A stretch of 64,000 nt of DNA from an uncultured bacterium (GCA_964515295.1 CAZETW010000001.1:367-64366), one strand, 5' to 3'; positions 5,388 to 64,000 are shown, counted from the stretch's first letter. Program-made: numbers and translations. Notes: generated by a model not told the origin, from the sequence alone.

Positions 5388-7034
5388 CTACTTACCAGGG
5401 CACTGCTCTGCTACCTTGGGATCTATATTTTTATTACCATAAGCTTTATCAAAATGATTCTTAAAATCTCTGGCAAGCTTAACAGCTCTTTGTTCATAAG
5501 ATTGTTTACCCTTCCAGGATTTTTTTGGATTTAAAATATTTTTAGGCACTTCAGGACATGATTTTGGTATCCAAACCTTAAAATATTCATCCTGTTCATA
5601 CTCGACTTTTACCAATTTTCTGTTTAAAGCTGCTTTTACCATTGCTCTGGTTAAATTTATATCCATTCTGTCACCTTCTCCATAGGGGGCGCCACTCCAT
5701 CCTGTATTAATCAGGTATACCTGTGAACCATGTTCTTTCATCTTCTCTCCCAGCATACCGGCATAAATATCAGGATTAAGAGGCATAAACGGTTCACCAA
5801 AAAAACGGCTGAAAGTAGAGACCGGTTCTACAATACCTGTCTCAGTACCAGCCAATTTACTGGTATATCCCATTAAAAACCAAAGCATAGCCTGTTCCGG
5901 TGTCAGTTTGGAAACTGGTGGAATTACCCCGTTTGCATCTGCTGTCAGGAACAAAATGGTTTTAGGATGGTCTGCAGTTGAGGCAGGTTTAATATTGGAT
6001 AGATACCGTAAAGGATAACTAGCACGTGAATTAGGAGTAAATCGGTCATCATCAAAATCAAATATGCCATTCGGATAAATCATAGCATTTTCAACAATAG
6101 CACCATGTTTTAAATAATCATCTTTATGCATTACTGCATTATAGATCTCAGATTCTTTCTCAGGATTAATATTAATAAATTTTGCGTAGCATCCGTTTTC
6201 AAAATTAGCTATCCCCTTATCAGACCAGCCATGTTCATCATCACCCAGTAATGCACGGCTCGGATCAGCAGAAAGAGAAGTTTTTCCTGTCCCGGATAAT
6301 CCTAAAAGCAAAGCAGAATCATTATCTTCACCTTCATTCGCTGAACAGTGAAGGGGAAGTATTTTTTCCATGGGTAAATAATAATTCATCACTGTAAAGA
6401 TCAATTTTTTCACACTACCTCCGTAAGCAGAACCGATTACCACACCGAGATGTCTGTCCATATCCATAGCAACGATCATATTAGTGGTCTGCCCGTCAGG
6501 CAACTGACGCAAATGTCCTTTGTATCTTTTTCTGGTAAGTTTATCATAAGGCAATACAATTAAAGTAAAGGGGCGCTTATAAAAACAACTTTTTTCAATA
6601 TCATCAGGCACTGATCTGAACATATTATCTGTGAACAAAACTGTTGTTGCCTTATCAGTAATTGTCTTAACAGGAAGAGCAAAGGAGGTGTCAGCTCCAA
6701 CCACACGATTAGTAATAAATATAGTTTCTTTTTTGTTGAGTAAGGATAGTCCGTCCTCCATGGCCATATCAAAAGTTTTTTCAGTAATGGGTATATTATT
6801 AGGACTATCCCAGTCAATATTGGATTCACTTTCTTTTCTTTTAACTATAACAGTATCCTTAGGGCTACGGCCAGTAGATTCCGGAGGTGTCCAGGTAGCT
6901 AAAGCACCATTAGCTGAGACTACAGTTTCTTTCCGTTCTACTGAGAGACGGATCATTTCCTCTCGCGGTAAATCTTCTTTTACCAAACTGGCTTTCTTTT
7001 CTAAAACCTTATTAATCTCTTTTTCCCAATTCAA
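5388..7034 (-). CDS. pckA: Phosphoenolpyruvate carboxykinase (ATP)
   Basis: 548 aa with kinase-1a-type loop LLGLSGTGKTSLSADP and conserved PEPCK-ATP blocks (GDDEHGW, NTGWSG). Confidence 0.95.
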   Translation of the reverse strand: MNWEKEINKVLEKKASLVKEDLPREEMIRLSVERKETVVSANGALATWTPPESTGRSPKDTVIVKRKESESNIDWDSPNNIPITEKTFDMAMEDGLSLLNKKETIFITNRVVGADTSFALPVKTITDKATTVLFTDNMFRSVPDDIEKSCFYKRPFTLIVLPYDKLTRKRYKGHLRQLPDGQTTNMIVAMDMDRHLGVVIGSAYGGSVKKLIFTVMNYYLPMEKILPLHCSANEGEDNDSALLLGLSGTGKTSLSADPSRALLGDDEHGWSDKGIANFENGCYAKFININPEKESEIYNAVMHKDDYLKHGAIVENAMIYPNGIFDFDDDRFTPNSRASYPLRYLSNIKPASTADHPKTILFLTADANGVIPPVSKLTPEQAMLWFLMGYTSKLAGTETGIVEPVSTFSRFFGEPFMPLNPDIYAGMLGEKMKEHGSQVYLINTGWSGAPYGEGDRMDINLTRAMVKAALNRKLVKVEYEQDEYFKVWIPKSCPEVPKNILNPKKSWKGKQSYEQRAVKLARDFKNHFDKAYGNKNIDPKVAEQCPGK

Positions 7035-7090
7035 TGTTACCTCCTTATTTTATTGACATAGTTATATAAAAAATTATTTATTATAATATC

Positions 7091-7810
7091 TTACTTTCTC
7101 CATAATCCCATCCGAAGAACATCTTTATACTCCCCATCTACAAAAACTTCATTATGCAATATTCCTTCTACTCTAAATCCGACTTCCTCATTCAAACGTA
7201 TATTTCGTATATTAGTATCAAAAGTATTTAAATAAATCTTCTTCAAATCTAAATTGCAAAAGCCATATTTAATCCATAATTTGGTGGCCTCTTTTGCATA
7301 ACCTTTGCCTCTAAATTTTATATTTCCTATCAACTTTCTTAGTTCAGTTTTTAAATGATTAACATCATAATTTAAAAATGCTACAGAGCCAATGGGAGTT
7401 TCATCTTTTAAAGTTATTATACCAATAATATTACTGTCTGCATTTAACAGCTCATCAATGCTCATTTCTCTGGCAGTTATCCGGGATAAAAGAAATCTTT
7501 TACCAGCATCATCTTTTAACCATTTCTCAAATAATCCTCTGTCCTTATTCCTATCCAATAATCTTACTATAATATTTTTACCAATTAAGGGCGGGGTTAC
7601 TAATTCATTTAAATTCTCCTCAATCCTGTTGAATTTTAAATTGGAACTTAATTTTTTCGAATTCTCCTCTCCCATGACATTATCCAGAAGTACATTTACA
7701 AATCTAACATAATCGATTTGTTTAAATCCATAAGAAGTACCTTCTTTAACAAAACTCCTGGCAAGAGCCTCTAAAGTAGGTTCAGGTACATTTGAATCAG
7801 TGAATTTCAT
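7091..7810 (-). CDS. GNAT-family N-acetyltransferase with an N-terminal extra domain
   Basis: C-terminal half has GNAT motifs (IGIITLKD..GSVAF..RGKGYAKEATKLWIKYGF..L..I.L.T...N..NIRLNEEVGF). Confidence 0.65.
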   Translation of the reverse strand: MKFTDSNVPEPTLEALARSFVKEGTSYGFKQIDYVRFVNVLLDNVMGEENSKKLSSNLKFNRIEENLNELVTPPLIGKNIIVRLLDRNKDRGLFEKWLKDDAGKRFLLSRITAREMSIDELLNADSNIIGIITLKDETPIGSVAFLNYDVNHLKTELRKLIGNIKFRGKGYAKEATKLWIKYGFCNLDLKKIYLNTFDTNIRNIRLNEEVGFRVEGILHNEVFVDGEYKDVLRMGLWRK

Positions 7811-55887: not shown

Positions 55888-56032
55888 AAGCAAAACTGTA
55901 ACTTTTAAATCTATCAAAACAAATGCGATCAGAATGTTTAATATCAATTACTTTCATGCTTCTCAATCGTAAGCAGATTTCTGCCTCTGAACTTGCCGAA
56001 AATTCAATGTCTCAGTTCGTACCATCCTAGAT

Positions 56033-56058
56033 CGCCCTGGATTTCCCAATCCAGGGCG
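56033..56058. terminator. GC-rich perfect hairpin CGCCCTGGAT-ttccca-ATCCAGGGCG with no flanking U-run
   Basis: 10-bp stem, 6-nt loop, 145 nt downstream of the larC stop. No T-tract on either strand, so its function is unclear: rho-dependent or structural element, or an RNase site. Confidence 0.35.
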
Positions 56059-56060
56059 CA

Positions 56061-56084
56061 TAAAAAATGAGCTTTGTAGCTCAT
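56061..56084 (-). terminator. Rho-independent terminator for the minus-strand DUF72 remnant
   Basis: Stem TGAGCT/AGCTCA (56068-56073 / 56078-56083), loop TTGT. On the minus strand it is followed by TTTTTTA (complement of the A6 at 56062-56067). Confidence 0.55.
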
Positions 56085-56101
56085 ACAATAATATAATAAA
56101 A

Positions 56102-56458
56102 TCATGAATTGGTTATCCAATAATCACAGTAACATCCTGTTCTGTCTTCAAGAATGCTGGCTGACTGATAAAATCGGTTCAGAAGATCGTCACCCTGTTT
56201 CAATTTATAGAAATGAGTGATTCTTCTATTGGCCTTCAACGTCATTTGAAATCCGTCTGGAAGTTTATTCCTCCAGCCTTTCAGCATGTTTGCAAAAGGA
56301 AAGCGATAAAAAGACATATTCAGTTCAACTGTATTAAAATACTGAGCCAGATATATGATCCACTCCGATCGCTTTAATTCATCAGGATAGAATTTTCCTA
56401 CCCAGTCATCATAACTCCAGCCGCTGGTACCAATAAAATATTCAGGATGTTGAATCAT
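56102..56458 (-). pseudogene. Truncated DUF72 (UPF0759/YecE-like) gene: only the N-terminal ~118 aa remain
   Basis: Begins with family hallmark IGTSGWSYDDWVGKFYP...TVELNMSFYRFP but stops at 118 aa; full-length DUF72 proteins are ~250-280 aa. No continuing ORF downstream. Confidence 0.5.
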
Positions 56459-56634
56459 TATAACAATAAAATTTGAGATTGTTTAATAAATTAAAAAACA
56501 AAAAACTATAAAAATATCAGAGACACAAAAATATTATAAAACAATTTATTTTTCAAGGTTGTCATACAAAACTCTGTAAACTCTGTAGTTTATTGAGGTT
56601 GGAGATATATTCAGAATTATTATACTGCTAATTA

Positions 56635-57192
56635 TCAAAAATGGAACGACAGCATCACTCTTTTGTAGGAATAATTTGCACTCATTTTTATGGGGCCAAT
56701 GGGGATGGTTACTTCCATGGGTTTAAAAGAAATGTAAATCGACCCCAGACTTAAAAGTCCGGATCCTATACACAGGGCAAGATGCTCCCAGGATTTATCA
56801 TCTATATTTCTTAGTTCAGGATCAGCCTGGTTTTGCTCATCAATTTTTTTGATGCGGTCCCTTTCATCCCGATAATCACCAAATTTTTTTATACTGTAAG
56901 CCCCTGAAGAAATCCCCAGCACCAGTAAAGGTAAAAACGGGTGGTGCACTTCTTTATAGTAACGCATCTTTTTTTCAAGATCTATTATCATCTTCCCCCG
57001 ATGAATTTCCGAAATATCACTTTTGGGCACAACAATAATAGTCCCGTCAATTAATCGAAGGATAAATCCTTTCTCGGTTAATTTGACTACCTCGCCTCTA
57101 TACTTCTTATTCTGTTTGGTAATAATAATATCTTGACCGAAACAGTGAACTGCCATCACTAAAAAAACAACTAATAATAACATTTTTTTCAT
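56635..57192 (-). CDS. Hypothetical secreted/membrane protein
   Basis: Signal peptide (MKKMLLLVVFLVMAVHCFGQ) and a C-terminal hydrophobic segment. No recognisable domain. Confidence 0.4.
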   Translation of the reverse strand: MKKMLLLVVFLVMAVHCFGQDIIITKQNKKYRGEVVKLTEKGFILRLIDGTIIVVPKSDISEIHRGKMIIDLEKKMRYYKEVHHPFLPLLVLGISSGAYSIKKFGDYRDERDRIKKIDEQNQADPELRNIDDKSWEHLALCIGSGLLSLGSIYISFKPMEVTIPIGPIKMSANYSYKRVMLSFHF

Positions 57193-57403
57193 AATTTTAA
57201 AAAACCTATTATATTCTTATAAACCAAAAGGCTTAAATCTTATATAAATTCTGCAATTTTTATGCCTTCAATAAAATATGTTTAGATATAATATTAATTT
57301 TCTTTTATTCTTTTCCTTAAAAAAATTACTTCTCTTTTTATCCTCTTTAGGAACAATAATTTATATAATTTAACAATAAAACAAATATCACAGAAAAAGA
57401 ATT

Positions 57404-60334
57404 TTACTCATATTCTCTGTACAGCAGCACCATAATCCGTCTGTTTAGATAACGACCAACAGGTGAACTATTATTACCAATGAGTTTCTCTTCTCTTCCC
57501 CGTAACTTTAAACGAAGAGGAACATTTTCACCAAAACCTTCCGGTTCATCAATTCTTCTCCATAAATCCTGATAATTCTGAGGATAATTATTCTTTACCC
57601 GCTGTTTGAAGGCATCGGTAAAACGTTGTGCCCGCCGATATGATAACCGTTCATTTACCTGATCAGAACCGATCTCACAGGCATGCCCCTCAAATTTTAC
57701 CCTCATATCAAAGTTACGGGCTAATTCTTCTGCAATAATCATCAGACGGTCCCAGTAAAACTGATAGGTCGGTTCTGCTTTTGCAAATTTTGCAGCACCA
57801 AATACTTCTCTTTTTCGTATAGTTCTTTTTTCTTTCAAATACATGGTTTCTGGATGAGTATAAAATTTTCTTCCTATACTGTCAGTCATTACCAGAGAAA
57901 ACTCATACTGCCGGTTTCGTTTAACTAATTTGCCGCTTTTTCCTGTACCATCCCATTTAATAACCCCCTGTAATGAATCTTCACTAATAAATCCTTCAGG
58001 ATTAAATGTTACAATGTCTGAACGTTCACCTAAATACCACTGTTCAACTCCGGTAGGTGTAACAATATTAACATCAATATTTATTATATTTCTCATAGTG
58101 GTGTCAACCGGCACAGTTAAGGGACCAAAAACTTTCTCTTCATACTTCTGGTCAGTTTCAAAAGCAACAACCCTGTATTGCTGCATGATCATTTTCGCAT
58201 CCTGGGGATCACTGGGTATTCTTCTGTCTCCCTTGATCTTCTCAGAATGATCATACTGAATATTTAACTGAGATTCCGGAGCTCCCAGGTCTGTCAGGAT
58301 TTCTTTAACAGATTCAGCTCGTCTGTCTGCCAATTCAACATCCTCTTCACCTGTCAGCTTATCTATTGAACCTTTAATGCTTAAAGTAATATCCGGATTA
58401 TTCTTTAATCTTCTTGCTATTACAACTAACGCTGGTTCCGGTACCTGACTTTGATCATAATATTCCTTAGATACTTTATCCGAGAATGGCTCAAAATAAA
58501 TATGAGGCACGATTGGGATATCAGTTGAATCATAGCCTGTTGCCATTACTTCTACTGTATCAGGGAGAGTAAACTTTCCTTTGGGAATAGAATATAATAG
58601 CTGATTCAATACATTATTAGCACTGTTTACCTCCAGATCCATATTGACCGGTCTGACTGTACCTCTGATCCTGTGCTTTCCTGGCTTGGATGTTTCCCAC
58701 ATAAAAGAAATTGTCGTATCTTCTCCTGCTGACAACCCATTACTTTGTACATTATGAATTTCTGTCTCAACAGTTTTTTCTGAAGAATCATTTTCAAACA
58801 CATCAAAGATTTTCATACGGAATCCGATTGTACTTCTCACACCAATATTTGTAATTTTAAAAGAGATCATACCCTGCTCTGGTGTGGTGGTTATCCATTT
58901 TTCCGGAATAAAATTAAAATCTCCTACAGCTAAATCATGGGTGGCAATTACAAACCGGTTAACATAAGAAACACGTTTACCGCCCTTTTGAGCTAACTGA
59001 ACATGCTTACTTAAATCATAGGCAGCAACTGCCCAGTAATAAATTCCCCCCTCATTAACCTGCAGAGAACATGAAGTATCAGCAGTAGACATACTGAAAA
59101 ATAAAGAACCGATCAGATCAGAACTTACAAAATCGCTGAAATTCCTGGAGATCATAGATACTGCTTTTTCCACAAGAAGACTATCCTTACTTACCATAAC
59201 ATAGTAATTCACCTGATCAAATGGATCCGGATCATACGAATTTTCCCAGTTCAGCCTGACAGTTGATGACTCATCCAATACCAGGGAAGAAGAAATATAC
59301 GGTGTCATTATTTTAAAAGGTTCTGGTGCAAGTGGGTAGTGAATGATTGAACCCCGATAACTGCTTTCCAGAGCCTCTCCATAACCAACATTGGCAAAAT
59401 CTATATCAAAACCATCCCCATATCTTGTATTTAGCTTTAAAAATGAACTCAATATATCATCACATCTGAATCCTACCCCAAAACTGAAATCTCCCAGGTC
59501 ATCACTGTTAAATTTATATCCTGCCCGTACTCCAATCATATCATGCCACCAGAATTCAGTACCTAAACCCACCATCCATTGTTTTTCTTCAATCTGGTTT
59601 ACATCCACTCCAATAAGCATACTGCTAATTTTATATTTTCCCAGGAGCAATGATGCACCAAAACGTTTGGTCAGAGGTAATGAAGTTTTCTGTTTATCAA
59701 AGGTAATGTCTGGCCCAACGTTTAAAAGGGAGGCTCCAAAACTAACAATCCCAAAATCAAATATACTGGTATTAATTTTAAAACGCTCAGGCCTGACAAG
59801 AACTCCAATATCACCAGCATAAGCAGTGGATGAATACGTATCAAAATTGGTGGATATATATTTCACTGAAGCTCCGATAGATATCATTCGACTTAACCAA
59901 TCCAGCCTGTATCCCAGAGAGAACATCCCTACCAAATGATCAGCACTGACTTTAGGCTGCATCCCGTCTGTTGCATCCCAGGGAGGCATTCCCAGATAAT
60001 TAATTAATACACCTAGTGAGGTTTTTCTGCTCCCTAAAAATCTGAACTGTTTGCAAAATCCGATATTAGCCTGATAAATATCAGCAAACCATTTATTATA
60101 AGATACGCCCCACTGCCATCTTCTTATATGTCCAAGACCTCCGGGATTCCAGTATATAGTAAAAAGATCATTGCCAACACCTGTAAATGCATTTCCCATC
60201 CCCGCTTGTCTCGCTCCCAATCCAATTTTTAAAAATGGAAGTCCTGTATTTTGCTGAGCAGATAAACAAATAGGAAATAAAATAATACTCAATAGTATTA
60301 CACTTACCAGTATATTTTTCTTCTTCATTGTCAT
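57404..60334 (-). CDS. 976-aa outer-membrane protein: N-terminal FadL/PorV-like beta-barrel, FN3/CARDB-like middle, two C-terminal OmpA-like peptidoglycan-binding domains
   Basis: Signal peptide. FadL/PorV-type N-terminal motif LKIGLGARQAGMGNAFTGVGNDLFTIYWNPGGLG with alternating amphipathic strands through ~aa 330. OmpA-C-like blocks LADRRAESVKEIL and ERLSYRRAQRFTDAF. Ends in an aromatic residue. Confidence 0.55.
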   Translation of the reverse strand: MTMKKKNILVSVILLSIILFPICLSAQQNTGLPFLKIGLGARQAGMGNAFTGVGNDLFTIYWNPGGLGHIRRWQWGVSYNKWFADIYQANIGFCKQFRFLGSRKTSLGVLINYLGMPPWDATDGMQPKVSADHLVGMFSLGYRLDWLSRMISIGASVKYISTNFDTYSSTAYAGDIGVLVRPERFKINTSIFDFGIVSFGASLLNVGPDITFDKQKTSLPLTKRFGASLLLGKYKISSMLIGVDVNQIEEKQWMVGLGTEFWWHDMIGVRAGYKFNSDDLGDFSFGVGFRCDDILSSFLKLNTRYGDGFDIDFANVGYGEALESSYRGSIIHYPLAPEPFKIMTPYISSSLVLDESSTVRLNWENSYDPDPFDQVNYYVMVSKDSLLVEKAVSMISRNFSDFVSSDLIGSLFFSMSTADTSCSLQVNEGGIYYWAVAAYDLSKHVQLAQKGGKRVSYVNRFVIATHDLAVGDFNFIPEKWITTTPEQGMISFKITNIGVRSTIGFRMKIFDVFENDSSEKTVETEIHNVQSNGLSAGEDTTISFMWETSKPGKHRIRGTVRPVNMDLEVNSANNVLNQLLYSIPKGKFTLPDTVEVMATGYDSTDIPIVPHIYFEPFSDKVSKEYYDQSQVPEPALVVIARRLKNNPDITLSIKGSIDKLTGEEDVELADRRAESVKEILTDLGAPESQLNIQYDHSEKIKGDRRIPSDPQDAKMIMQQYRVVAFETDQKYEEKVFGPLTVPVDTTMRNIINIDVNIVTPTGVEQWYLGERSDIVTFNPEGFISEDSLQGVIKWDGTGKSGKLVKRNRQYEFSLVMTDSIGRKFYTHPETMYLKEKRTIRKREVFGAAKFAKAEPTYQFYWDRLMIIAEELARNFDMRVKFEGHACEIGSDQVNERLSYRRAQRFTDAFKQRVKNNYPQNYQDLWRRIDEPEGFGENVPLRLKLRGREEKLIGNNSSPVGRYLNRRIMVLLYREYE

Positions 60335-60343
60335 TCCCTATTT

Positions 60344-63271
60344 TCAGCGAATCAAAATAAATTTTTGATATTTATTATAACCGCCTGATGAAATGATAGC
60401 TAAATATATACCGCTCCCTACAGGTTTACCTTGTTCATTAGTCCCATCCCAGGTAGTAAAGTTCCATCCGGCAATTCCCGGTTTATCGTAGACATTTTTC
60501 ACAAAATGTCCAGCAATATCATAAATATTTACCTCTGCAGAACGATTGGAACTCAATTTAAAATGTAAACCAAGTTCATTATGTTCTGATGGTTTATATG
60601 TATTATAGTCCAGATAAAATTTATTACTGCTGGCAATAGTGACAAATGCCGTATCATAGTAAGAAACATGCCAAAAATCTTCTGTTTTTATAATAAATCC
60701 TATTTTTTCTTTTTCTGACGAAGTTACCATGCGGGTATCTTTAAAAATAGGAGATAATTCTGCCCATTCATCTGGCTCAAGTGAATTATGTTGAATAAAA
60801 TTATCCCAATATGTATTTTCTGTACTTCCATCACCAAATAAAACAATCATATCCCAGCTGAAAATTTTTATAGGAGTCATTACAGAAACCTGTATACTGT
60901 CAAAGGGTTCTATTTTACCCGGGACAGCCATAACCTGCGGACTGGGAGGCACAATCCCCGCAGCCCAGACTGTATCCTGAGCAGTGTTATTATGATATAT
61001 CGTATCATCAGCACTGCTGATCATCACTGTATTGATTAATGGCTCGTCCCAGGGAGGCATAAATGTATCAACTTTACAGGTATACACAAATTCAACAGTA
61101 CCACCATTAGAGGCAACCTCCTCAACATGCCACATCAGACTGTCATCTGAAAAAGAATATGCGACTGGAAAATCGACTAATGTTACTTTTTCCGACAGCT
61201 TATCCTTGACTGTTATATCATGACAGGTTAATTGTCCATTATTAACTAATCGAACCTGATACTCAATAGTATCTCCGGGGTACACATACCAGGTGGAGTC
61301 ACTCCCGGAAACCAAAAGTGAATCTCCGATACCTTTCTTTTTAACAACAATATCCGGAGCGTTGAGAGGAACATAATATAGAGTATCGCTTGCACTGTTG
61401 TTTGACAATATCGTATCTGCCTTGGATTCTGTTATAACCTGATTGACAACAGGAAGTATATCCGGTATAAGCAAGGTGTCAATATAACATGTATATAAAA
61501 AACTCTTTTTATCTCCCCTCGATTCTAATCTGTCAATATTCCAAATGAGCGAATCCTCATATACAGTAAAGGACTCCGGAACATCGATCGGTTTAATAAA
61601 GGACGGTAATATATCCTTTACTTTAATATTATCACAGGGAAGCTCACCCTTATTTTTTATCAGAACATTATAGTAAAAGGTATCTGTTGAAAATATATAC
61701 CATAAAGAATCACCTTTTGATACAGCTAATGAATCACTGGTCGCTCTTTTGATAACCGTAAGATCCGGAGCTTTTAAGGGAGAATAATATACTGTATCAA
61801 TTGCAGTATTATTATAATCTGTATAATCCAGCGAATCAGGATAACATCTGATAGACACCGTATTTATTCTGGGCAATAGATGATTAGTAAAAACAGTATC
61901 AGCATAAAATTTACACTCCCAGCTTATTTTTTGCTGAGGTTCGATTGAAGGAAAATTCCATATAATAGAATCCCCGGTCACACTATCTGGTTCAATATCC
62001 GATTCAGAGAAAATAAAAGATCCTGGATAATAATCTGTTACAGAAAGCGGACCAACTATATTGGGTCCATTATTATAGGCAGTAATTGTATAGGTAACTA
62101 TATGATCAGTTACCGCAATATTGGCTGTATCGGAATCAGTAACTATAACTGAATCAGTAACAGAATTTTTGACAATCCCAATATCAACTGGAATAAAGGG
62201 AACCTGGTAATACCCCTGCCCCAGCCCTACTGTTGTATCATAATTAACTGTCACATCTACTGTACGCCAGGTACCGTTTCTCACTGGATCCGTTGTAGTA
62301 TGAGCTAAAACATAGTACCCTTGTATTAAACCATAAATCCCCAGGTAGATATCACCTAAATCCTCACCTGTACTTGTATAGGTATAATAGCCACCTGTTT
62401 TGTTAGCTATTTCAGTTAAAACATCTGTAGGTGACTCTTCTCCCAGACCAATAGTGAAAACAGGAATTTTGTTGTCTTTTGCATAATTAATAATATCCTG
62501 TTTTGAACGTCCCCCCTGCGCTAAATTTCTTCCGTCTGAATAAGCAATAACTGCTCTTCGACCTTCTTCTTCCACAGTTAATTGAAGCGCCTTATAAATA
62601 CCATCATATAATCTTGTTCCCCGCCAATATCTGTAATCCCTGTCAATTGCCTCGTTTAATAAGGTGGTATCACTGGTAAATTCCTGGAAAACTTCTACTT
62701 CACCGGCAAATTTAATGATACTGGTCCGGTCATCCTTGGTCATATTTCTGATATATTTCTTAGCAGATTTCTCTACAGTCTGTATTACATGAAACATACT
62801 TCCGCTGTAATCCATAGCCAGAGCAACTGATATTCCTTCTCCCTGGACATTTGAAACTTCAGTAACCATGTACTGAGGAGTCATATCCTTTGCATTTGGA
62901 TTCTCCGGAAAAGAAGGATTATATCTATGAAACTCCATAATATCTTTCCACACCTCATCAACCGTAAGACTGTCACCCCTCATAATGAAATCCTGAGGAG
63001 CAAGCCATTTGGAAGTATCGGCTAAACCATGAAAAAATAAATTGTTTTTTGTGTCTTTAATTTCAATTAAAGATAGAACTGGGAAGGGAAAGTCTGCTCT
63101 CAAATCACGATAAGATACTGTATCATTAATTGATATTTTTTTAAATATAATATCCAGTGTATCTACTTGAGAAAAACTAACTAAGGGGAATAGTACAATA
63201 CAAATTATAAATAATAATTTTGTATTATATTTATAAATTATATTTCTCCCTTTCATGAAATTTTCCTTCAA
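60344..63271 (-). CDS. 975-aa T9SS-secreted protein with vWA (MIDAS) domain and DUF11-type repeats
   Basis: Signal peptide. vWA with MIDAS VALAMDYSGSM...IAYSDGRN...TIGLG. Repeated DUF11-like units (TITAYNNGPNIVGPLSVTD...). C-terminal beta-rich tail NIYDIAGHFVKNV...GSGIYLAI is a T9SS CTD. The downstream 976-aa gene starts 10 nt after its stop. Confidence 0.7.
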   Translation of the reverse strand: MKENFMKGRNIIYKYNTKLLFIICIVLFPLVSFSQVDTLDIIFKKISINDTVSYRDLRADFPFPVLSLIEIKDTKNNLFFHGLADTSKWLAPQDFIMRGDSLTVDEVWKDIMEFHRYNPSFPENPNAKDMTPQYMVTEVSNVQGEGISVALAMDYSGSMFHVIQTVEKSAKKYIRNMTKDDRTSIIKFAGEVEVFQEFTSDTTLLNEAIDRDYRYWRGTRLYDGIYKALQLTVEEEGRRAVIAYSDGRNLAQGGRSKQDIINYAKDNKIPVFTIGLGEESPTDVLTEIANKTGGYYTYTSTGEDLGDIYLGIYGLIQGYYVLAHTTTDPVRNGTWRTVDVTVNYDTTVGLGQGYYQVPFIPVDIGIVKNSVTDSVIVTDSDTANIAVTDHIVTYTITAYNNGPNIVGPLSVTDYYPGSFIFSESDIEPDSVTGDSIIWNFPSIEPQQKISWECKFYADTVFTNHLLPRINTVSIRCYPDSLDYTDYNNTAIDTVYYSPLKAPDLTVIKRATSDSLAVSKGDSLWYIFSTDTFYYNVLIKNKGELPCDNIKVKDILPSFIKPIDVPESFTVYEDSLIWNIDRLESRGDKKSFLYTCYIDTLLIPDILPVVNQVITESKADTILSNNSASDTLYYVPLNAPDIVVKKKGIGDSLLVSGSDSTWYVYPGDTIEYQVRLVNNGQLTCHDITVKDKLSEKVTLVDFPVAYSFSDDSLMWHVEEVASNGGTVEFVYTCKVDTFMPPWDEPLINTVMISSADDTIYHNNTAQDTVWAAGIVPPSPQVMAVPGKIEPFDSIQVSVMTPIKIFSWDMIVLFGDGSTENTYWDNFIQHNSLEPDEWAELSPIFKDTRMVTSSEKEKIGFIIKTEDFWHVSYYDTAFVTIASSNKFYLDYNTYKPSEHNELGLHFKLSSNRSAEVNIYDIAGHFVKNVYDKPGIAGWNFTTWDGTNEQGKPVGSGIYLAIISSGGYNKYQKFILIR

Positions 63272-63442
63272 TTGATAAAAAAAAGAACTATATATATTTA
63301 TTAATTTTTTAAAAAATAATAATAATAAGTTTTAATGTCAAGCATTATTTTAATATTTTCGTAAACCATAATATAATCATTATCCTTTCATGGATCAATA
63401 AAAATAAATACATACAAATTGTTTTAGCAAATTCCATACCAT

Positions 63443-63483
63443 AAAAATAGCCCTGAGGGAATATTTCCACTCAGGGCTATTTC
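63443..63483 (-). terminator. Strong rho-independent terminator for the partial upstream minus-strand gene
   Basis: Perfect 13-bp stem AAATAGCCCTGAG / CTCAGGGCTATTT (63445-63457 / 63470-63482), 12-nt loop. On the minus strand it runs into TTTTTATGG. Confidence 0.75.
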
Positions 63484-63514
63484 GATTTATGATAGATGAT
63501 CAGAATTTCTAAAA

Positions 63515-64000
63515 TCAAAACATTCTGGCTATACTTACTCCGATAAAATAATCATCATATCCAGCCAGGGTATTCAGGGAATTAACCCATAAAGGATAAT
63601 TTTCTGATTTATTCTGTACAAAAGTATCTTCATTATAGGAAAACTTCAGGTTGAGATTTTTAGTCATATGATAAGATAATTCTGTACCGTAAGCCCAATC
63701 CTTTAATCCGATTTTGTAGGCAGTAAAAAAATTAATTTTAAAATTTTTTAAAATCCGCTGTTTATATTCTATTCCCAGATGAAAACCATCCACCCTGTTA
63801 AAACGGAAAAGAGGACTCAGTTTTTGTAATACATTATTCGAAACCTTACCCCCTTTTATTTCTGTAGTATCAGTACCGGAAACAATTGCTATTGTAGCTA
63901 AATCCGCCAGGAAGCCACGAGGCTTAAACGCTTTATCAAGGGTCATGGTACTGTCTAGATTTGTATATGCTTCTTTTTCATCCTCAGTTAAGGGGATTAC
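63515..64000 (-). CDS. Partial CDS (C-terminal part; start lies beyond window end): probable outer-membrane beta-barrel protein
   Basis: The ORF track starts it at Met 63946, but the frame stays open to position 64000 (..VIPLTEDEKEAYTNLDSTMTLDKAF..). Alternating hydrophobic pattern and C-terminal ...ARMF aromatic end. Confidence 0.4.
   Translation of the reverse strand, partial: VIPLTEDEKEAYTNLDSTMTLDKAFKPRGFLADLATIAIVSGTDTTEIKGGKVSNNVLQKLSPLFRFNRVDGFHLGIEYKQRILKNFKINFFTAYKIGLKDWAYGTELSYHMTKNLNLKFSYNEDTFVQNKSENYPLWVNSLNTLAGYDDYFIGVSIARMF

Follow-up and report, generated by a model that had tools for sequence, protein, structure and literature searches.

A PorV/PorQ-family barrel protein with two OmpA-like domains, encoded beside a predicted type IX secretion cargo in an uncultured bacterium

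Two adjacent genes in a 64,000-nucleotide stretch of DNA from an uncultured bacterium (GCA_964515295.1, CAZETW010000001.1:367-64366; referred to here as the window) encode a predicted type IX secretion system (T9SS) cargo and an outer-membrane barrel protein of the PorV/PorQ family that is fused to two OmpA-like domains. Both open reading frames (ORFs) were verified in the ORF list of the window and both lie on the minus strand, as do all of their features given below: the cargo ORF at 60344-63271 (975 aa from a TTG start, or 970 aa from an ATG at codon 6) and the barrel-protein ORF at 57404-60334 (976 aa). An initial annotation of this DNA had described the 976-aa protein as a PorV-type barrel with FN3/CARDB-like spacers and two OmpA-like domains, and its upstream neighbor as a cargo carrying a von Willebrand factor A (vWA) domain with a metal ion-dependent adhesion site (MIDAS), DUF11 repeats and a T9SS C-terminal domain (CTD). 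Pfam and NCBIfam matches, AlphaFold2 (AF2) modelling and Foldseek comparisons bear out the first architecture, and Pfam, NCBIfam and alignment the second.

Architecture of the gene pair

The stop codon of the cargo gene (TGA) is separated from the first ATG of the barrel gene by a junction of 9 nt, AAATAGGGA (60335-60343), one nucleotide shorter than the 10 nt reported initially. The second ATG of the barrel gene lies 15 nt from the cargo stop, and an NCBI record of the same protein (P0001) begins there and is 974 aa long. The junction has a purine-rich GGGA stretch before the ATG ACA ATG start region, and the spacing suggests that the two genes are co-transcribed and translationally coupled. 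A scan for promoters and terminators across 56000-64000 gave counts not above those in shuffled sequence, and operon boundaries cannot be inferred from it.

The barrel protein begins with a poorly conserved signal peptide (residues 1-26, 60257-60334; helix 3-23 in the AF2 model), followed by a plug-like N-terminal segment that is highly conserved (27-72) and then by a 14-strand PorV/PorQ-family barrel (73-334), the two together occupying residues 27-340 (59315-60256). The NCBIfam PorV/PorQ family model NF033709 matches residues 30-303 with 150.6 bits (cutoff 90), and a profile of 42 family sequences searched against the PDB matches the solved Flavobacterium johnsoniae PorV (6h3i_F) at E=1.6e-16. 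The AF2 model (mean predicted local distance difference test score, pLDDT, 85.3) has short N-terminal helices at 33-69 and then 14 long strands at 73-334. PorV takes Foldseek ranks 1 and 2 (8gl6_F and 6h3i_F) with template modelling (TM) scores on the target of 0.66-0.68, and FadL appears only at rank 40 (TM 0.52). The N-terminal domain is thus assigned to the PorV family by hidden Markov model (HMM), PDB profile and fold, and the possibility raised initially that it might belong to a non-FadL family is not supported. A PorP/SprF identity was rejected, there being no PorP_SprF (PF11751) match in the Pfam and NCBIfam scans, and that of a plain FadL transporter was rejected with FadL far below PorV in fold similarity. 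The PorV2 equivalog scores 32.7 bits against a cutoff of 325, and family-model scores place the protein within the PorV/PorQ family and not among orthologs of PorV or PorQ proper.

Outer-membrane barrels of 14 strands have both of their ends in the periplasm, and the 640-residue C-terminal extension is therefore predicted to be periplasmic; the periplasm is also where OmpA-like domains act. The extension starts with an FN3-like beta-sandwich spacer with a helical insert (residues 341-465, 58940-59314; AF2 strands 346-465), which is conserved in the family and predicted to be periplasmic. A CARDB spacer follows (residues 466-582, 58589-58939), with a Pfam CARDB match of 25.6 bits (cutoff 22.7) over residues 481-577 and CARDB-like PDB matches at 487-580. 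A linker and the first OmpA-like domain, OmpA1, occupy residues 583-735 (58130-58588), a further beta-sandwich separates the two OmpA-like domains (residues 736-846, 57797-58129; AF2 strands 739-846), and the second, OmpA2, ends the protein (residues 847-976, 57407-57796). Pfam OmpA (PF00691) matches two stretches of the protein with 37 bits (cutoff 27.2), the 42-sequence profile places OmpA-like PDB matches at ~610-723 and 848-970, and Foldseek returns the peptidoglycan-binding domains of OprF and Acinetobacter baumannii OmpA at TM 0.71-0.77.

The two OmpA-like domains differ at the positions expected to bind diaminopimelate, Asp271 and Arg286 in A. baumannii OmpA (PDB 3td3-3td5). OmpA1 carries the canonical Asp/Arg pair, with D658 present in 39 of the 42 aligned sequences and R672 in all of them. 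In OmpA2 the position of the canonical Asp is taken by Cys886 (41/42), and R901 is invariant (42/42); its 'GHAC' motif aligns with the 'GHTD' of RmpM. GHAC or GHTC spans the family, and C886 is the sole cysteine of the barrel protein conserved in at least 90% of the aligned sequences. This conserved cysteine might be a sign that the wall is bound in an unusual way.

The cargo starts with a region containing a Sec signal peptide (residues 1-35, 63167-63271), with the TTG start at 63271, the ATG at codon 6 and a hydrophobic helix at residues 12-32 in its AF2 model (pLDDT 82.7). An N-terminal beta-domain of the head follows (residues ~36-140, 62852-63166; AF2 strands 39-139); it has no family match, and its conservation goes with that of the vWA domain, both in orthologues and in the two single-chain relatives described below. 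The vWA domain (residues ~141-360, 62192-62851) is matched by Pfam VWA (56.5 bits) and TIGR03436 (82.3 bits), has an alpha/beta fold in the model, and contains an intact MIDAS (D154-x-S156-x-S158, T219, D246). Among 20 orthologues D154, S156, T219 and D246 are present in all, and S158 in 17. The stalk (residues ~361-775, 60947-62191) consists of three immunoglobulin (Ig)-like beta-sandwiches modelled at 364-496, 504-634 and 641-770, coinciding with three stretches assigned to Pfam DUF11 (PF01345; 97.2 bits). The newer name of DUF11 is CLIPPER, described as a domain that forms the stalks of fibrillar adhesins and carries an isopeptide bond (bioRxiv 10.1101/2025.04.25.650565). A phmmer comparison of the CLIPPER stalk with PDB sequences, made with the residues of the Lys-Asn isopeptide bond and its catalytic acid in view, gave no matches. 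A pre-CTD beta-domain (residues ~776-882, 60626-60946; AF2 strands 779-880), conserved together with the CTD, leads into a divergent type-A-like T9SS CTD, a putative barrel-binding module (residues ~883-975, 60347-60625; modelled at 884-973). The nearest solved folds of the cargo belong to adhesins and receptors with a vWA head and an Ig stalk, namely integrins alpha-X and alpha-M, SpaC (an adhesin at the pilus tip), PrgB and Mfa5 (from the tip of a type-V pilus), with the integrin I-domain-type and SpaC/Mfa5-type matches falling on the vWA domain. Given the vWA domain with its MIDAS, the CLIPPER stalk, the adhesin-like nearest folds and the CTD, the cargo reads as a fibrillar adhesin bearing a T9SS-type tail.

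The CTD of the cargo belongs to a distinct subclass. It matches TIGR04183 over residues 901-972 with 27.0-29.6 bits (cutoff 23), and does so from model position 10 only. Barrel-linked CTDs as a group score 19-30 bits starting at position ~10 (orthologues of the cargo 18.8-24.7), compared with 35-47 bits from position 2 for two generic CTDs of the window scanned as C-terminal pieces. Alignment of the C-termini shows that the motif NYPNPFNP, common to the four generic CTDs of the window, is missing from all barrel-linked CTDs, which share instead 'FKLSSNR', 'YDxxG', 'GW-N...WDG', 'VGSGVY' and an end of the form 'W/A-KK-x-I-x-V-R'. The type-B model CHU_C (PF13585) scores 18.3 bits on the cargo, below its threshold of 27. 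Two CTD motifs are required for T9SS export in Porphyromonas gingivalis (PMC11285876), a glycine in the beta3-beta4 loop and a lysine in the last strand, and G921 (in the YDxxG loop) and K970 (in the last strand), both at least 90% conserved in the cargo family, correspond to them by position only and not by superposition. Retention of these two residues would argue that the divergent CTD is still a genuine export signal. The four generic proteins (2552, 1508, 1135 and 472 aa) have clear type-A CTDs, none of them adjoins the barrel gene, and their strong matches imply a working T9SS.

Conservation of the pair and its single-chain relatives

All 52 distinct loci with DNA available upstream of a related barrel gene have an ORF homologous to the cargo CTD immediately or nearly so upstream and on the same strand, and in 45 of the 52 no more than 30 nt separate the two genes. 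With the arrangement repeated at every one of these loci, the pairing is far beyond chance. The initial annotation had considered that the genes might be found apart in related genomes; in the 52 loci they are never parted by another locus, and the sole non-contiguous case (L019) has an ORF of ~480 aa (6327-7766), dissimilar to the module, inserted between the cargo and barrel genes. We rejected this locus as an exception to the pairing, the cargo gene being present.

The upstream ORFs vary widely. Those that are complete range from 266 to 1932 aa, and BLAST detects a vWA head in just 28 of the 52 loci, whereas a BLAST piece corresponding to cargo residues 801-895 is present in most of the upstream ORFs. 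Because cargo size varies and the vWA domain is found in only these 28 loci, the conserved partner of the barrel is the C-terminal ~175 aa of the cargo (the pre-CTD domain and the CTD) and not the vWA head. The earlier description of the barrel as dedicated to one vWA cargo therefore holds with respect to the pairing, and needs to be changed with respect to the part of the cargo that is conserved.

The family is sizeable. Public data contain ~80 full-length relatives of the barrel protein at 42-88% identity, with more distant ones at 25-32%, and an exhaustive search of 1.84 billion representatives returned 931 proteins at E<=1e-30, including dozens of full-length clusters of ~960-1100 aa. A scan of species-representative genomes gave 56 loci, mostly labelled candidate division KSB1, plus Calditrichota and unclassified metagenome-assembled genomes (MAGs); taxonomic labels of the relatives include KSB1, Calditrichota, and 'Cytophagia' or 'bacterium' MAGs, and for some of them databases give the name 'PorV/PorQ family protein' or 'OmpA-like'. 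One MAG carries two pairs (L037 and L052), and at the edge of another locus (L051, 2-1257, minus strand) there is a second, smaller pair in which a 302-aa ORF ending in a subclass CTD is followed by the start of a PorV-family barrel. Searching all ORFs of the window and of 68 loci (952 kb) with an HMM of the barrel domain revealed no unfused PorV in the window. Unfused PorV-family proteins (P0098 and P0099) were retrieved by homology; they come from other assemblies and are not tied to pair-bearing genomes.

The search for cargo homologues also recovered two proteins, P0213 and P0315, in which the vWA head is joined to the OmpA foot in one chain. P0213 (859 aa; L069, 853-3432; from a MAG labelled Thermodesulfobacteriota) is related to cargo residues 9-361 (41% identity, E=1e-70) and to residues 471-976 of the barrel protein (33% identity over 513 aa, E=1e-78), and P0315 (887 aa) has the same head together with a segment related to barrel-protein residues 585-972 (36% identity, E=2e-69). 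Both lack the barrel, the CLIPPER stalk and the CTD; their foot has the order CARDB-OmpA-Ig-OmpA and retains the cysteine in a GH(T/A)C motif ('GHTC'). P0213 has a lipobox-like signal (LMASC), and the next gene encodes a protein with PD40 and OmpA domains. We considered whether these fusions could be assembly artefacts and rejected this, as the two proteins are 43-49% identical and have different junctions; by sequence they represent a real family, and they constitute Rosetta-stone evidence tying the cargo functionally to the barrel protein.

Several other proteins combine parts of the module in different ways. P0165 and P0176 consist of a full barrel-OmpA protein with a C-terminal 'two-component regulator propeller' (Reg_prop) region, P0243 has the OmpA foot behind a 947-aa BNR-like N-terminus, and P0113, P0115 and P0117 are PorV-family barrels of ~422-426 aa with a FlgD_ig (CTD-like) domain in the same chain. 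The OmpA foot looks like a mobile cassette. In one locus (L065, 846-5155) an unfused 343-aa PorV-family gene lies right after a 1085-aa gene without a Pfam match, a layout that recalls porU-porV. Two loci of a distant clade (L005 and L006, 13486-17096) contain an adhesin-barrel pair, immediately after it a CARDB+CHU_C protein and then an unusually long PorP_SprF protein of 602 aa; this second pair, which looks like a classical type-B one, is followed by an ExbB/ExbD cluster in which a MotA_ExbB protein is fused to Ig-like domains.

Neighboring genes in the window

A 185-aa gene on the same strand (56635-57192) lies downstream of the barrel gene at a distance of 211 nt. Its product combines a signal peptide with a small beta-domain and two hydrophobic segments, and ends in a conserved C-terminus of the ...LALHF type. 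A homologue lies directly 3' of the barrel gene in 26 loci, each of which has at least 43% barrel identity and so belongs to the closer clade. Its best family match is sub-threshold (Lepto_7_Nterm, 27.4 bits against 43), and its position raises the possibility that it is a third member of the module. Further downstream, a 118-aa ORF (56102-56458, minus strand) covers only the first ~100 of the 272 positions of the DUF72-type model PRK10302, and is probably a truncated gene remnant adjoining the module. The other neighbors are unrelated housekeeping genes on the opposite strand: priA, larE, larB and larC.

The genes for the four proteins with canonical type-A CTDs are clustered elsewhere in the window (18734-40999, minus strand; 1508, 1135, 472 and 2552 aa). 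Between the 1508- and 1135-aa genes are genes for a protein similar to exosortase-A-associated acyl-CoA ligases (TIGR03098; 572 bits, just below the cutoff) and for a decarboxylase-like protein (TIGR03099).

A candidate wall-tethered anchor for a surface adhesin

We propose that the pair specifies a fibrillar adhesin made in two pieces, which would span the outer membrane and be anchored to the cell wall. The cargo would be exported by Sec and then by the T9SS by way of its CTD, and displayed at the surface with the metal-dependent vWA head atop the CLIPPER Ig-like stalk. The CTD and the pre-CTD beta-domain would escape both cleavage and lipid attachment and would stay on the extracellular face of the cognate barrel, a form of retention modelled on that of PorZ, which is kept by PorQ, and PorU, which is kept by PorV. 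In the periplasm, the two beta-sandwich spacers of the barrel protein would be followed by the double OmpA-like foot gripping peptidoglycan. A load on the head would then pass through the stalk, the CTD and the barrel to the cell wall, and the barrel would be spared from extraction. Because force would run through the barrel to the wall, the barrel is best pictured as fixed in place and devoted to its cargo and not as diffusing in the membrane. We thus favor, with moderate confidence, a peptidoglycan-tethered anchor dedicated to the adhesin and holding an uncleaved CTD over a mobile shuttle of the PorV kind. The fixed docking site, or outer-membrane-to-peptidoglycan strut, suggested at the outset is the reading that comparative genomics supports best.

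PorU and PorZ are held at the surface by PorV and PorQ, with their CTDs not removed (PMC5562754, PMC12365241, PMC11285876). As we picture the present pair, PorV/PorQ-family barrels in these cases likewise anchor a secreted protein through an unremoved CTD in a cognate, 1:1 fashion; PorQ and PorV, however, lack a periplasmic OmpA extension, PorZ and PorU are parts of the machinery (an A-LPS carrier and the sortase) whereas the partner here is a putative adhesin, and the PorQ-PorZ and PorV-PorU genes are not a conserved adjacent pair of the kind described here. PorV itself, solved in complex with the SprA translocon (6h3i, 8gl6), is the closest relative of the barrel by structure and by sequence, and shares with it the FadL-type architecture of 14 strands. 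PorV serves many cargos as a mobile carrier, in contrast to a barrel protein paired with one, and compared with PorV the present protein has a smaller barrel domain (~310 aa rather than ~370-400 aa) and ~640 additional, predicted periplasmic residues ending in putative wall-binding domains.

Proteins with type-B CTDs are anchored by cognate PorP/SprF barrels, as in PorE(OmpA_C)-PorP-PG1035 and SprF-SprB, and for cargo that is not mobile the barrel has been postulated to be tied to peptidoglycan through the OmpA_C protein PorE (PMC9143113). The P. gingivalis PorE-PorP-PG1035 set and the porP-like/porE-like pairs of F. johnsoniae thus resemble our locus in having a CTD protein, an adjacent cognate barrel and an OmpA_C tie to the wall (PMC9143113), features that the present proteins would reproduce. 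They differ in that the barrel is PorP, whereas here it is of the PorV/PorQ family without a PorP_SprF match; in that the CTD is of type B and not type-A-like; and in that the tether resides on PorE, a separate TPR/beta-propeller lipoprotein, whereas here it is present in cis and doubled. Judged by its domains, the present pair works like the PorP/SprF-type-B-PorE system and is not a member of it. Outside the T9SS, Acinetobacter sp. Tol 5 has a giant adhesin whose gene is accompanied by that of an OmpA-like protein binding peptidoglycan, an arrangement that recalls the present pair (TpgA-AtaA; PMC12523085, PMC13082670), and TpgA strengthens the membrane anchor of AtaA against pulling (PMC13082670). 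AtaA, however, belongs to the trimeric autotransporters (type Vc) and brings its own barrel, TpgA acts as a partner in the periplasm and is not a barrel, and neither a T9SS nor a CTD is involved. The CLIPPER-stalk fibrillar adhesin B9T28_05395 of Acinetobacter silvestris is one chain, whereas here there are two proteins with a presumed joint between CTD and barrel (bioRxiv 10.1101/2025.04.25.650565). It is by analogy with the PorU/PorZ, PorP/SprF-PorE and TpgA systems that we favor a dedicated, fixed anchor.

Intimin and invasin (type Ve) follow the same logic, with a periplasmic peptidoglycan-binding domain, a barrel, an Ig-like stalk and an adhesive tip. They differ in being a single polypeptide that passes through a 12-strand barrel, in using LysM rather than OmpA, and in depending on BAM rather than the T9SS.

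The arrangement had been put forward as novel, which is correct for the cis tether on a PorV/PorQ-family barrel; cognate anchoring of a CTD by a barrel and tethering by OmpA_C had already been documented (PMC5562754, PMC9143113). The principle of a cognate barrel anchor with an OmpA wall tether is accordingly known, and what is new is the family of the barrel, its fusion in cis to an OmpA foot that is doubled, and the dedicated type-A-like CTD subclass. We found no description in the literature of a PorV/PorQ-family barrel fused to OmpA domains, nor any link there between KSB1 and the T9SS; a T9SS has been suggested as possibly present in other phyla of the Fibrobacterota-Chlorobiota-Bacteroidota (FCB) group (PMC11285876).

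Several observations weigh against the anchor as proposed. The barrel protein falls below the equivalog cutoffs for PorV (NF033710, 74.5 bits against 250) and PorQ (NF033711, 60.8 against 220) and below the Pfam PorV threshold (PF19572, 22.1 against 27), so that treating it as functionally equivalent to PorV or PorQ is an extrapolation. By alignment, just one of the two OmpA domains has the textbook peptidoglycan-binding site. No T9SS core genes (SprA/Sov, GldK-N, PorU, PorV) are present within the 64-kb window. Finally, the head and the OmpA foot of P0213 and P0315 share one compartment, presumably the periplasm, and the head may therefore act inside the envelope; this is the main point that a surface-exposed adhesin on a tethered barrel leaves unexplained.

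This last point is the strength of a T9SS-independent assembly within the periplasm, in which the CTD-like domain would dock on the periplasmic part of the barrel protein and the vWA domain would work inside the envelope. P0213 and P0315 unite head and foot without barrel, stalk or CTD, the former with its lipobox-like signal, and the CTD subclass lacks the N-terminal generic motif, with several orthologues under the TIGR04183 cutoff. We nonetheless give this explanation a rather poor chance of being correct: a variable CLIPPER stalk (three domains here, in cargos of 266-1932 aa) is what surface fibrils typically have and would be out of place in the periplasm, the CTD of the window cargo clears the curated T9SS cutoff, G921 and K970 stand at the positions of motifs critical for export (PMC11285876), and the partner barrel comes from the only family for which binding of CTDs on the cell surface is known. 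A different role, which we consider unlikely and somewhat less so, is that of a cognate secretion helper: the barrel would take the subclass CTD from the SprA translocon and be required for export, its OmpA domains would do no more than position it near the machine, and the adhesin would then be cleaved and either released or attached elsewhere. Most of the data are compatible with such a role. Strict pairing and a distinct CTD subclass suit a specificity factor equally well as an anchor, the closest solved fold is that of PorV, a carrier, and PorP-like proteins have been proposed to collect their own cargo at the translocon (PMC9143113). Shuttling, however, is not open to a barrel that one or two OmpA domains hold to peptidoglycan, and the head-foot fusions suggest that head and wall anchor remain one permanent structure; moreover, helper and anchor roles are not mutually exclusive.

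The barrel could also be the general PorV of the organism, fused to OmpA domains in this lineage, with its position next to an adhesin gene having no special meaning. Among HMM equivalogs and solved folds alike, PorV is indeed the best match, and a second PorV-family gene was not found in the 64-kb window. It seems very unlikely all the same, given an equivalog score of 74.5 against 250, synteny with one CTD subclass in 52 of 52 loci, and the occurrence of two paralogous pairs in single MAGs or loci; the four generic CTD proteins of the window carry the canonical CTD and are encoded away from the barrel gene, and a wall tether contradicts the shuttle mechanism of PorV (PMC5562754).

Returning to the tethered anchor, a more tentative extension concerns its origin. 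The pair may represent a hitherto unrecognised class of split, envelope-spanning adhesins in which a non-covalent joint between a CTD and a PorV-like barrel bears the load across the outer membrane, the barrel being hard-wired to peptidoglycan. Such a class could have arisen from a wall-bound vWA ancestor consisting of one chain, of which P0213 and P0315 would be survivors, when T9SS parts (stalk, CTD and barrel) were inserted between its head and its foot. We regard this as possible and somewhat doubtful; if true, PorV-family barrels would, outside Bacteroidota, have been taken up more than once to serve as permanent surface anchors for particular cargos.

How T9SS cargo that keeps its CTD is retained, and how force is transferred from large adhesins to the wall, are partly understood and have been studied almost only in Bacteroidota. 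The locus offers a compact and self-contained test case, with cargo, matching PorV-family barrel and wall tether in two adjacent genes, natural single-chain head-foot relatives as an evolutionary control, and a predicted CTD-barrel interface that is open to modelling, mutation and transplantation. The practical gain is modest, being a better annotation of ~100 or more clusters labelled just 'PorV/PorQ family' or 'OmpA-like'. For the biology of the family, the pair would carry the idea of a cognate barrel anchor beyond PorP/SprF and type-B CTDs to the PorV/PorQ family, and beyond Bacteroidota to other phyla.

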